Notes: generated by a model not told the origin, from the letters alone. DNA of 64,000 nt from a virus (IMGVR_UViG_3300033463_000088:1-64000), one strand, 5' to 3'; positions 6,572 through 19,589 are shown, counted from the first letter of the stretch. Program-made: numbers and translations.

Positions 6572-6934
6572 TTATAGTGTTGCAATTTGAGTGATTTCAT
6601 CTGTTGGAAGCCAACCAGACCAGGTTTGAGCAGTTTCTTTTTCTTGCTCTGGGTCATAAGCAACACTTTCAACATAAATCATTTTACCCATTGTCTTAGA
6701 AATATAGATTTTAAGATATTGGGATATCGGAGCATTGCCATTGTTCCAATTAGATGCTAAAACAGACTCTTTATTGTTTACAATAGAGCCAGGAAGCATT
6801 ACCAAATACATTTTGTTTAATTCATACTTAGGTTTGCTATATTTAGGTATAACAAAAGTCTGAGTTGCCTCATCAAAATAGTTTAAATTTGCGTAATTTA
6901 CTTGTTTTAGTTGATCTTTAATTAAATCTCTCAT
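6572..6934 (-). CDS. hypothetical protein
   Basis: 120-aa ORF directly downstream of the promoter motif at 6941-6951. Confidence 0.7.
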   Translation of the reverse strand: MRDLIKDQLKQVNYANLNYFDEATQTFVIPKYSKPKYELNKMYLVMLPGSIVNNKESVLASNWNNGNAPISQYLKIYISKTMGKMIYVESVAYDPEQEKETAQTWSGWLPTDEITQIATL

Positions 6935-6951
6935 CTTTATTATTATACAAT

Positions 6952-6980
6952 AAAAGGGCCTGTGTTTTGGCCCATTTTTT
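6952..6980 (-). terminator. intrinsic terminator
   Basis: gggcc-aaaacaca-ggccc hairpin followed by tttt on the minus strand, after the stop at 6984. Confidence 0.65.
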
Positions 6981-6983
6981 AGA

Positions 6984-7364
6984 TTATTTATCGTTAGTTT
7001 TATCTTTTAAATACTCTAATAACTCTAAGAAAAGATACTCATCAATAATATAATGATTTTCTTCTCCTGGGCCGAAGTTGAATACAAGGGCTGAATGAGG
7101 TTTTCCCATGAATACAGCTTCTTGTTTATTTTTCTCAAACCATTCCTTTTTAATTGAAATGGATTTGGAATGTTCCATTTTAGTCTTAGCTTCAAGGAGG
7201 AATTGTTCTGTTAATACATCACCTTTTGACCAATCTGTTGCTCCACTATTAGCGGTTCGTTTACCACCAGTAGCTTTAGCAATATCAGTTTCCTGGGCTT
7301 TTGACCTTGTTCTTGTTGGGGTCTTTTGACCTTCTTTTTCTCTAGTTAGAATCTGAATGGCCAC
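6984..7364 (-). CDS. PD-(D/E)XK endonuclease / Holliday-junction-resolvase-like protein
   Basis: ANSGAT..SKGDV....FLLEAKT pattern; likely GTG start at 7362-7364 after gagagg. Confidence 0.65.
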   Translation of the reverse strand: MAIQILTREKEGQKTPTRTRSKAQETDIAKATGGKRTANSGATDWSKGDVLTEQFLLEAKTKMEHSKSISIKKEWFEKNKQEAVFMGKPHSALVFNFGPGEENHYIIDEYLFLELLEYLKDKTNDK

Positions 7365-9028: not shown

Positions 9029-9841
9029 TTATCTTAATAATCCATATTCAGCGAGCTTTTCAAATCCGCCGATGTAATGTATATAATCCTTCGCAACCTC
9101 AACAATTTGGTCGTAAGGTTTATTATCAATAGTATCATCTCCAATAGCGTATGAGATTTCTACTGGAGCATTTAAATCCTGGGCTTTTAACCAGGCGTAA
9201 ATTTGAACTGAAACATCTGCTTTGCTAAAATCTTTACCGTGTAAGCCTCCGCCTGTAGCAGAATCGCCCAAATCAGAGCCGATTTTTCTATTTGTAGCTC
9301 CGCAGTCTACATCAGTTCCGCCAGACCAATCACCTAAAGGATTAATAATGTTTGTAAGAGTTGGTCGGCTATATCTTTTAATATAACGTTTTAAGGAAGT
9401 AGTCTTAGCATTACTTTGACAAACAATAAGTTTGTTATGAACTTCATCTAAGAGATACTTACCGTCAGAAGGATACTTTTTATCTAATACACGCGCAAGA
9501 GAAGTTAAATGTTTCTCTTCGCTGGTTGCTGGAACACATTTAGCTATACCATTATCGCCGCATCTAAGCTTTTTGGCTTGGTTATTAGCTAAATGTATAT
9601 CCTGAGGAACCTCTACATAGTCAACTGTAAGAGGTCCAGCTATTCTTTTGACAATACTGAGAATGTCTTGTATAGGAAGTTTAACAGAGGTTTCATTAAT
9701 AATATGGCAGTTACCATGTCCGATTAATACTTCGACTGCAACACGAGGGTCAGCATCAACAGAGTAAGCTAAATCAACGATTGCGCCAGCAATACGGTCA
9801 GCTACTTTATCTGGATGATACATTGAGACCTTCTCAAACAT
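9029..9841 (-). CDS. metK: S-adenosylmethionine synthetase, short (270 aa) form
   Basis: HPDKVADRI, GDNG, GATNRKI, GGGLHGKDFSKAD match the MetK signatures GHPDK, GDQG, G.TGRKI, GGGAFSGKD..KVD. Confidence 0.85.
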   Translation of the reverse strand: MFEKVSMYHPDKVADRIAGAIVDLAYSVDADPRVAVEVLIGHGNCHIINETSVKLPIQDILSIVKRIAGPLTVDYVEVPQDIHLANNQAKKLRCGDNGIAKCVPATSEEKHLTSLARVLDKKYPSDGKYLLDEVHNKLIVCQSNAKTTSLKRYIKRYSRPTLTNIINPLGDWSGGTDVDCGATNRKIGSDLGDSATGGGLHGKDFSKADVSVQIYAWLKAQDLNAPVEISYAIGDDTIDNKPYDQIVEVAKDYIHYIGGFEKLAEYGLLR

Positions 9842-10317
9842 TATTTTTTAACCTCGTCTACTAAACATCTGTAGTCAGATTCCATAAATGTCCTGAGTTT
9901 TTTGGACGGAATCTCTACTATATTATACAATTTATTGTCAAGCATTTTAAGACTAATTGACTTGTTCCCGTCGTCCCTAATTTTAAGGGCTTCGGAGGCA
10001 GAACAAGCAATAACTCTATCATGTTTACTATACCAAACAATAATATATTGGGCTGTGTCCTCAAGACCGATATAATCTTTTAATCTGTCAAGTTGAGGTA
10101 TCTTAGCAAAGTTAATTGTTCCTTCTGTTGTTTCTTTACATTCAAGCATTCATAAAATATGATTATTAAATGCTAAGAAATCACAAGGGTTTTGACTTGT
10201 GTCCTTATATCCTGTGATTTGGTCAGGTAAACGATAGATAAAAGTTCCTGGGAAGCAAGCTTTCCAGTCTAACTTAAATCTTTCTTCAAACTTTTTACCT
10301 AGCTTTGTATTACTCAT
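9841..10317 (-). CDS. recU: RecU-like Holliday junction resolvase with in-frame TGA (Trp)
   Basis: ATG at 10315-10317 overlaps the upstream stop (TAATG); MSNTKLGKKFEERF...IYRLPDQ...NPCDF..FNNHIL[TGA 10150-10152]MLECK; 158 aa. Confidence 0.8.
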
Positions 10318-11453
10318 TAGTCTTTCTTCTCTGGAATTAAGTTGCTAACTGCTCCTCTAATGATAACGATTGAACGATGATTACCGCAGTTGACTGTAAT
10401 ATGATCAATTTTACAGGAGTCTAATACTGATTTAATATCAGCTAAGTTAACTTCAAAGTTATAAGTTGTATCAATTAAGCTACCATTTTCAACAGTGACA
10501 GTCTCGACATTACCAAACTTATCAGAAATGGTGAATTCGTCAGCATTAACAGATACTTTAACAGGAACAAGACCTAAGTTTGGCTTTTCACCGCCCTTAT
10601 TATATCTTGTATAGGTTAATAATCTTGTAATAGCAGCAGATAAAGCTGTTGTTGAGAGAACGACTTTATAGCTATAATTTTCATTGACATATCTCTTTGT
10701 AGCCATACAAGGACCTTGGACTTTACTAATTAATAAGTCATCATTAGTAATAATCGCTGCTAAATAGACTGTTGGAGTTTGTAAACAAATCTTTGTTCTA
10801 ACAGTTCCATTTGGAAGTGGGTCTTGACCTAAGCTAAAATAGACATCATCACTGAATAACTTGAATAATTTAACAATTCGTTCATTTAATAGGAGTTTTA
10901 CAGGCTTTTCGAGCGTAAATGCGTTCAAACAAGCGCCTGTTGTGAAGGTAAAACAACCAGTTTCATCGATGTAATAGAGTTTTTGAAGCTCATTAACATT
11001 TTCCATGTTTCTAGTTTTTTGAATTTCTTTACTATTAACGTTGATAATACTAGCAAGAATATCATTACTAATATTCATTTCAACTGTTTTATTCTTAATA
11101 GCGATGACTGGGAGCTCCATTAAATTGCTATTTTCATAAATCATAGCAACTTTATAGCTGCTCTTACCTGTTGAAATGACAACATTATTACCATCAACCT
11201 TTAATTCAAAGGTTTCTGTTGTTAAACCAGAGATAAGTGATAAGAATAAAGCGCCATCGACGACAGCCCTGAACTCTTCGTCAGTATCAACTGGGAATTT
11301 AATAGAAACATAATACTCTTTGTTGGTAACATTTAAGTATAATGCTGTTGGTTTAACCGAAATTTCAACATTTGCAGCGTTCTTATCATTTGGGTCAGAC
11401 GCTAATAAAATCTTATTTACGGCTTCTTGGAAATCTTTTGTTTTTAAAATCAT
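10317..11453 (-). CDS. dnaN: DNA sliding clamp, beta subunit (DnaN)-like
   Basis: 378 aa, three-domain alternating beta/alpha pattern, LYLNVTNKEYYV resembles the clamp 'L.ATD.E' strand; lies next to the polymerase. Confidence 0.65.
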   Translation of the reverse strand: MILKTKDFQEAVNKILLASDPNDKNAANVEISVKPTALYLNVTNKEYYVSIKFPVDTDEEFRAVVDGALFLSLISGLTTETFELKVDGNNVVISTGKSSYKVAMIYENSNLMELPVIAIKNKTVEMNISNDILASIINVNSKEIQKTRNMENVNELQKLYYIDETGCFTFTTGACLNAFTLEKPVKLLLNERIVKLFKLFSDDVYFSLGQDPLPNGTVRTKICLQTPTVYLAAIITNDDLLISKVQGPCMATKRYVNENYSYKVVLSTTALSAAITRLLTYTRYNKGGEKPNLGLVPVKVSVNADEFTISDKFGNVETVTVENGSLIDTTYNFEVNLADIKSVLDSCKIDHITVNCGNHRSIVIIRGAVSNLIPEKKD

Positions 11454-19229: not shown

Positions 19230-19589
19230 TTATTCTTGCGGTAAATTAGCAAAATCTTGACATAATTGTTGATATTTTGGGCTTGCCCTTGTCTCATCAA
19301 TTTTGTCTTTATAAACAGTAGGCATGTTTAGAACCCAGTCTTTACAATCTGCTAAGGAGGCAAATCTTAAGAGAGCTCCTTTGATAGGACAAGCAATCAT
19401 TGGAATTGCTGTACCAGATTTGATATCAACAATTTTCCAACGAAGTTCTGGATATAAAGCTCTACCTTGCTCTTTATAAGCAAAGAGTTCATAACCAATT
19501 GCTGTTCCTGAAACTTTGACTGCTGCGTAGTGATGATCTTTTGCTTCTTCATCTCAAACACGAGTATAAATTCTAAATTCTTTTGCCAT
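19230..19589 (-). CDS. hypothetical protein with in-frame TGA
   Basis: Absent from the ORF track; MAKEFRIYTRV[TGA 19554-19556]DEEAKDHH...FANLPQE-TAA, 119 aa, fills the gap after folD exactly. Confidence 0.7.

Follow-up and report, generated by a model that had tools for sequence, protein, structure and literature searches.

Phages of the gut and rumen in which TGA is reassigned to tryptophan, including the Jade and Agate clades, have been described in terms of a code-switch model (Borges et al., bioRxiv 10.1101/2021.08.26.457843). The same study presents an early gene that harbors an intron homing endonuclease with recoded stops, and these in-frame stops were argued to bar production of the endonuclease until late (10.1101/2021.08.26.457843); the terms 'resolvase' and 'recombination' are absent from its text (0 occurrences). 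A second precedent is found in T4, where late nucleases encoded on early polycistronic mRNAs are translated only late (PMC2988022), and where endonuclease VII serves mainly at the packaging stage, can cleave blocked forks and is not required for recombination-dependent replication (PMC3016281). The locus described here has in common with the phages of Borges et al. the standard-code replication genes, the TGA-rich structural genes and a tRNA(UCA) (here in relatives), and the complete genomes of its relatives are likewise of ~200–230 kb. Unlike their endonuclease, the recoded gene is a conserved host-type enzyme under selection and not a selfish element, and the pattern is quantified here over ~50 lineages, under both TGA=Trp and TAG=Gln, which goes beyond that study. 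The T4 genes (I-TevI-III, segB and others) offer an analogy in the form of a DNA cutter that lies among early genes and is translated late, a timing that we infer for our case. However, in T4 this is achieved through hairpins masking the ribosome-binding site and through late promoters, as opposed to an in-frame stop that would be relieved by a change in decoding, and T4 endonuclease VII is no homologue of RecU.

The stretch that was analyzed (the window) makes up the initial 64 kb of a viral contig of 75,080 bp, and its GC content is 34%. CheckV estimates a 76-kb relative to be 34% complete and complete relatives range from 130 to 237 kb, suggesting that the contig represents about one third of a jumbo phage of the bovine gut or rumen. 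The window displays the trait of code-switch phages, with TGA dense in structural and late genes and scarce in replication genes. Coverage by ORFs of at least 100 aa increases from 0.77 under code 11 to 0.94 under code 4, with the entire gain lying past 29 kb, and the TGA-rich genes between 29.8 and 63.6 kb contain 66 TGA versus 118 TGG codons (36%). The 35 ORFs between 0.3 and 29.2 kb contain two real in-frame TGAs versus ~108 TGGs. A first-pass annotation had counted about 45 early genes, a figure that we lower to the 35 ORFs of at least 60 aa in the minus-strand block 334–29214; its observation that in-frame TGAs occur in only two early genes, namely RecU and the hypothetical gene at 19230–19589, is borne out. 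A third apparent early TGA (6679–6681) was discarded, as it falls inside an over-extended clamp-loader N-terminus, the orthologues of which begin at residue 53–61. The TGA of the hypothetical gene seems to be real, given that there is no alternative start and that its ATG lies 2 nt past the FolD stop. Its homologues (in loci L001, L005 and L006) are parts of ~300-aa ORFs and cover residues 25–114 only, so that codon 12 and its assignment to Trp lie outside the aligned region.

RecU abuts both of its neighbors with no spacer and is part of a minus-strand row of genes, named from PHROG hits, which in the order of transcription comprises dUTPase, a DnaC-like loader, DnaB, primase, SSB, PolA, clamp and RecU, followed by a SAM-synthetase-like gene, orf162, UvsX, three clamp-loader genes and an exonuclease and, at its far end, by orf268, an HD-domain phosphohydrolase and SbcD. 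A GAGG is seen 10 nt 5' of the ATG of the SAM-synthetase-like gene, and thus independent initiation of that gene is also possible. Promoter-like sites are at chance level (28 found versus 30 expected), and the sole convincing signal is a hairpin at 6956–6973, situated in a gene-free 600-bp gap (6742–7341) between UvsX and the clamp-loader genes; it is possibly the end of a transcription unit with PolA, clamp, RecU and UvsX. The features of the window referred to below are as follows.

9841–10317, minus strand: RecU-type Holliday-junction resolvase gene, 158 aa if TGA is Trp
10150–10152, minus strand: in-frame TGA, codon 56, assigned to Trp; aligned with TGG-Trp in L001–L009 and with TGA in L016–L019
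10147–10149, minus strand: ATG (Met57) immediately 3' of the TGA, which opens the 102-aa ORF of table 11
10135–10143, minus strand: codons of E59-C60-K61, the E-x-K of the PD-(D/E)xK active site; E59 and K61 invariant in 49 homologues
10180–10182, minus strand: codon of D46, the catalytic Asp, 5' of the TGA; invariant in the alignment
10264–10266, minus strand: W18 codon, TGG in the window but TGA in relatives (ten unique RecU sequences)
10315–10319, minus strand: TAATG overlap of clamp stop and RecU start, with one base in common; both meet at 10317
9839–9843, minus strand: TAATG overlap that joins the RecU stop to the start codon of the SAM-synthetase-like gene (9029–9841), again with one base in common
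19230–19589, minus strand: hypothetical gene, 119 aa, with TGA at codon 12 (19554–19556); ATG 2 nt after the FolD stop
6956–6973, minus strand: terminator-like GC hairpin with T-run, bidirectional, by consensus match only

The product of 9841–10317 is a divergent RecU-type PD-(D/E)xK resolvase, with cleavage of Holliday junctions as its predicted activity; the identity proposed in the first-pass annotation agrees with the fold, the catalytic residues and PHROG 843. Against the Pfam RecU model (PF03838) the window protein scores 21.7 bits, under the gathering cut-off of 25, while two TAG-recoded homologues (from L045 and L058, see below) score above it with 32.2 and 30.9 bits respectively. PHROG 843 ('Holliday junction resolvase') matches the window protein with E=8.8e-13. 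Sequence-profile searches of the PDB with two alignments recovered no RecU match, only a chance FYV10, and hence a fold search was needed to establish the identity. An AF2 model derived from a 49-homologue alignment (pLDDT 92, pTM 0.87) retrieved in Foldseek searches RecU/PrfA structures as all of the eight best matches (2fco, 1rzn, 1y1o, 1zp7, 5fdk; probability 1.0, TM 0.62–0.68), followed by archaeal Hjc. The alignment of 49 sequences, with homologues from IMG/VR, revealed invariant residues at E11, R29, D32, D46, E59, K61, Q75, S120 and D148, and the catalytic Glu...Asp...Glu-x-Lys set is present in the form of E11, D46, E59 and K61. We take these four to be the equivalents of E36, D88, E101 and K103 of B. 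subtilis RecU, a correspondence mapped by spacing rather than by superposed structures. D46 precedes E59 by 13 residues, as D88 does E101 in B. subtilis RecU, and the title of PDB entry 5fdk mentions D88. The window protein resembles Bacillus RecU/PrfA (1zp7, 2fco, 1rzn, 5fdk) in its fold, the Glu of the N-terminal helix, the D-x12-E-x-K motif and a size of ~155–200 aa, and differs in being only 15–18% identical, phage-encoded, and shorter in the region from the first helix to the catalytic Asp. Close relatives were absent from the phage collection, in which blastn matched only the neighboring SAM-synthetase-like gene and the sole RecU match was from Streptococcus phage MS1 (KY629621.2; 28% identity over 75% of the window protein), a small temperate-type phage with no recoding.

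Translation table 4 yields a single 158-aa ORF on the minus strand at 9841–10317, and table 11 yields two, of 55 and 102 aa. The TGA occurs in the context TTA TGA ATG CTT GAA TGT AAA (L-W-M-L-E-C-K), three codons upstream of the catalytic E59-C-K61. A stop at codon 56 leaves a 55-aa product with E11 and D46 retained and E59 and K61 lost, so the earlier claim that a code-11 stop strikes the active site is correct with respect to its E-x-K part. An assembly or sequencing error as the source of the TGA is refuted and can be set aside as having practically no chance: a contig from an independent bovine-gut sample (X3) shows zero differences over 10082–10319, TGA included, a variant contig that comes from an RNA library and is ~96% identical (X7) has 9 differing sites over 10057–10309 with none at 10150–10152, and the same codon is TGA in L016–L019. 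When TGA-bearing RecU genes were compared, dN/dS was 0.04–0.15 on either side of the TGA column, and it was 0.06–0.075 downstream of it in L016, L017 and L018, all of which have TGA at codon 56. These low values on both sides imply that translation of RecU continues past the TGA and that the gene is maintained by purifying selection, with no decay. Furthermore, all 34 RecU TGAs detected in the loci described below align to a TGG-Trp of a homologue that is less than 90% identical, and judging from these alignments the TGA of RecU is read as Trp.

The adjoining ATG and the two ORFs of table 11 could alternatively point to a broken or two-piece RecU, that is, either a decaying pseudogene or a 55-aa piece complemented by a re-initiated 102-aa piece, and re-initiation at Met57 is in itself possible from the layout of the gene. 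However, D46 and E59/K61 would then be on different chains, the ATG has no Shine-Dalgarno-like run upstream of it upon inspection of the sequence, and TGAs at other columns (W18, W95 and ~W105) are not followed by an ATG. Given also the range of dN/dS seen on both sides and the invariance of all the catalytic residues, we consider a broken or two-piece enzyme to be very improbable. Annotators of such phages should not mistake a 'split' resolvase for a pseudogene.

Two scans of IMG/VR yielded 82 loci with RecU homologues, taken with up to 10 kb of flank per side. In these loci Trp codons were labelled by the aligned window gene, and a TGA was accepted only against a TGG-Trp in a homologue of less than 90% identity. 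Labelling by the window gene replaced single-linkage clustering, because the code-4 reading fuses TGA-ending ORFs and thereby merges RecU with its neighbors, and a 'supported by any HSP' criterion was dropped, as it over-counts read-through tails common to near-identical loci. TGA is apparently the true stop of RecU in L060, L063, L065, L072, L033–L035, L038 and L041, and the clamp gene of L013:8753-10456 apparently also ends with TGA as a true stop; a code-4 reading of these genes adds tails or fuses neighbors. Lineages with such TGA-ended genes either are standard-code or would have their early genes extended after a switch.

Codon 56 is TGG in the nearest relatives, namely L001–L003 (81% identical), L004–L006 (74%), L007, L008 and L009, TGA in L016–L018 and L019, and Phe, Tyr or Leu in more distant homologues. 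L001–L006 have their TGA at codon 18 instead, which is TGG in the window, and TGA at this position was found (leaving duplicates aside) in L001, L004, L019, L025, L037, L044, L048, L050, L076 and L081. A conserved obligatory gate at codon 56 was rejected, given TGG at this position in L001–L006 and the lack of any RecU TGA in L007 and L008. These two loci belong to the same clade as the window (L019, the window, L001, L004, L017, L018, L007, L016 and L008), in which RecU bears a TGA in 7 of the 9 lineages, at codon 18, codon 56 or both. As read from the alignment of these relatives, the recoded stop is a property of the RecU gene and not of codon 56. Across all loci the Trp codons were distributed as follows.

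RecU: 34 TGA, 119 TGG (21 loci with TGA)
PolA: 0 TGA, 551 TGG (0 TGA and 574 TGG in a separate count over 69 loci)
Primase: 0 TGA, 197 TGG
DnaC-like: 0 TGA, 96 TGG
SSB: 0 TGA, 92 TGG
DnaB: 0 TGA, 72 TGG
Clamp: 0 TGA, 16 TGG
Clamp loaders (three genes): 3 TGA, 217 TGG
SbcD: 6 TGA, 107 TGG
UvsX: 1 TGA, 138 TGG

The loci were dereplicated at 90% RecU identity to 46 lineages, with the window excluded against ascertainment bias. In these jumbo-phage lineages the ratio of TGA to TGG was 24/78 in RecU, 3/779 in the nine core replisome genes and 12/213 in the recombination genes, and Fisher tests, which treat codons as independent, gave 5e-21 for RecU against core, 4e-6 for RecU against recombination genes and 3e-6 for recombination genes against core. 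On account of this assumption of independence, changes were also counted on a tree built from PolA, independently of RecU. Five Trp columns together require a minimum of 17 codon-state changes (6+5+1+3+2), and the presence of a TGA in RecU changed 7 times or more; L037 and L044, which lie outside this tree, have TGAs at a sixth column. The share of TGA thus forms a gradient from ~0.4% in the replisome through ~5% in recombination genes and ~24% in RecU to 36% in the late genes of the window. Within the window alone, the chance of RecU being hit (3 of ~110 Trp codons) is ~5% and not significant, and the relatives make a far stronger case for the earlier view of RecU as a special target of recoding in a standard-code replisome block. 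What did not survive from the first-pass annotation is the expected conservation of TGA at codon 56 itself, close relatives having TGG, whereas the enrichment of TGA in RecU over the early genes held, and TGAs are not randomly scattered among the latter.

Ten loci have no RecU ORF under code 4, and in 5 of these, belonging to three lineages (L045/46, L058 and L078/79), the gene has in-frame TAGs. They are found at positions occupied by Gln in homologues, such as those of the motifs D-Q-x-S-G-Y and S-Q-N. The TAG-bearing RecU genes of the three lineages, with TAG read as Gln, are as follows.

L045:9995-10450
L058:9998-10456
L078:9995-10474

In these lineages 7 out of the 20 conserved Gln positions of RecU are encoded by TAG, whereas the core replisome has 3 out of 199 (p=2e-6), and G021, the genome with L058, encodes a tRNA(CUA). 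Going by these aligned positions, the TAG=Gln case is an independent replication, with a different codon, a different amino acid and other lineages. Given that these relatives fall within the same PolA tree, the clade has switched between two stop reassignments. Selection has repeatedly permitted a recoded stop in RecU, and not in the replisome genes, under two codes. Between RecU and UvsX, L078 also encodes a 388-aa ORF with 11 in-frame TAGs that matches Pfam DUF7487 (L078:11824-12987).

Four further stop-rich ORFs in the replication blocks of relatives were recognized as GIY-YIG/NUMOD homing endonucleases.

L016:3760-4365: homing endonuclease between primase and SSB, 8 TGAs
L081:6874-7665: homing endonuclease that splits PolA, GIY-YIG, 5 TGAs
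L019:11142-11948: homing endonuclease
L009:12630-13703: homing endonuclease

Five other TGA-bearing ORFs had either no Pfam match above cut-off or a match to a C-terminal fragment of DnaB helicase, and none matched a nuclease. PolA is distributed over two or three ORFs in L081:5001-8835, L019:5822-8850 and L009:3163-7761, and the insert in that of L081 resembles an intron or else a homing element standing free within the polymerase gene. After RecU, most TGAs of the recombination set are in SbcD. The UvsX of the closest large relative (L016:11197-12396) has 3 in-frame TGAs, none of which stands against a TGG-Trp of a distant homologue, and these may be sense codons at variable positions. Across the clade, recoded stops recur independently in RecU and homing endonucleases, less often in SbcD and UvsX, and almost never in the replisome.

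This distribution could reflect pure tolerance, with AT-biased mutation making TGA wherever it is harmless; RecU would be needed at packaging only, its TGAs would drift in and out, and there would be a consequence for timing with no selected role. Several observations are consistent with this: the position of the TGA varies and flips between sisters (L016 has TGA against TGG in L008 at dS 0.49), RecU carries TGA in just 12 of ~34 apparently recoded lineages, with the other 22 having a validated TGA elsewhere in the locus only, selfish homing endonucleases follow the same pattern, and the genome has 34% GC. Moreover, the RecU share of TGA is no higher than that of the late genes (~24% as against 36%), and hence positive selection over tolerance is not indicated. 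What tolerance alone leaves unexplained is that in the window's clade RecU retains one or more TGAs in 7 of the 9 lineages although the position shifts, and that a 152-aa RecU has four TAG codons, though both are still compatible with drift at a late-gene equilibrium. Tolerance, in the sense that RecU is not needed early, accounts for the data as well as a selected gate does; as the whole explanation we regard it as possible but rather doubtful.

ARAGORN and Rfam detected no tRNAs or RNA families above threshold in the window or in the 64–75 kb region, and no suppressor tRNA, RF1 or TrpRS was found on the 75-kb contig, which covers about one third of the genome. Among the relatives, a tRNA(UCA) is present in the tRNA arrays of G010 and G014, and odd-loop tRNA candidates are present in G008, G009 and G033; G010 has its tRNA(UCA), yet 0 TGAs among 3 RecU Trp codons. 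tRNAs with odd anticodon loops lie in the arrays of relatives at L084:10667-10755 (minus strand), L099:1165-1253 (plus strand) and L085:9230-9305 (minus strand), two with an 8-nt loop (ARAGORN 'tcac') and one with a 6-nt loop ('ca', SeC or Leu), and these tRNAs could be atypical suppressors of UGA. G008 and G033, in which the 'tcac' form occurs, lack a validated TGA in the locus of RecU. Among the relatives with a large contig the closest is G006, which has 38 tRNAs in one array with no plain tRNA(UCA) there, and a tRNA with a 6-nt anticodon loop that ARAGORN labels as 'Asn|Stop' (L083:4046-4119).

Leaky decoding by the host raises a further alternative, in which the host tRNA-Trp reads UGA at a low rate throughout infection, so that a toxic nuclease is kept low rather than delayed. 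A or C directly after a stop weakens termination, and the base that follows the TGA is A. Lovett et al. (1991) reportedly observed low-efficiency decoding of UGA as Trp in B. subtilis, and in a Firmicutes-type host that behaves similarly RecU would be dimmed and not blocked; the presence of only one TGA per RecU in the window's clade would fit such an attenuation of dose. However, relatives with 3–4 TGAs or 3–4 TAGs in RecU cannot depend on leak, and the late structural genes, being full of TGA, imply that efficient decoding must exist late. An effect on dose alone thus appears improbable.

Our main reading, to which we assign a probability of about 0.6, is that a functional RecU is encoded in a standard-code replisome operon and that the whole enzyme needs the code switch, which makes it a late protein in an early operon. 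RecU would be transcribed together with PolA and the clamp in this operon, and before the change in decoding ribosomes would halt at codon 56, giving a 55-aa product that should be inactive as it lacks E59 and K61. This class of phages probably supplies TGA-to-Trp decoding itself, through a suppressor tRNA(UCA) of the kind seen in the arrays of relatives. As the suppressor tRNA accumulates, whole RecU would be completed, and the gene would behave as a late one despite its location among early genes. A possible advantage would be that a cutter of junctions and forks is kept off replicating DNA until packaging. A more far-reaching interpretation is that recoding acts as a gene-by-gene timer for DNA-cutting enzymes in early operons, favored by convergent selection in TGA=Trp and in TAG=Gln lineages, by which RecU, then homing endonucleases and then SbcD would be kept from forks and recombination intermediates until packaging. 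We offer this timer tentatively, at somewhat less than even odds; if true, the genetic code would do for such a phage what RNA hairpins and late promoters do for T4.

RecU in these phages is a statistically solid new instance inside the known code-switch framework and not a new kind of system. The code-switch idea has so far been mostly block-level, with structural genes recoded and replication genes not, and RecU narrows it down to one gene: this conserved enzyme, encoded between the clamp and UvsX genes, repeatedly gains a recoded stop where its neighbors do not, under two reassignments. This suggests that recoded stops in genes of the early block could be a guide to phage functions that must stay off early.
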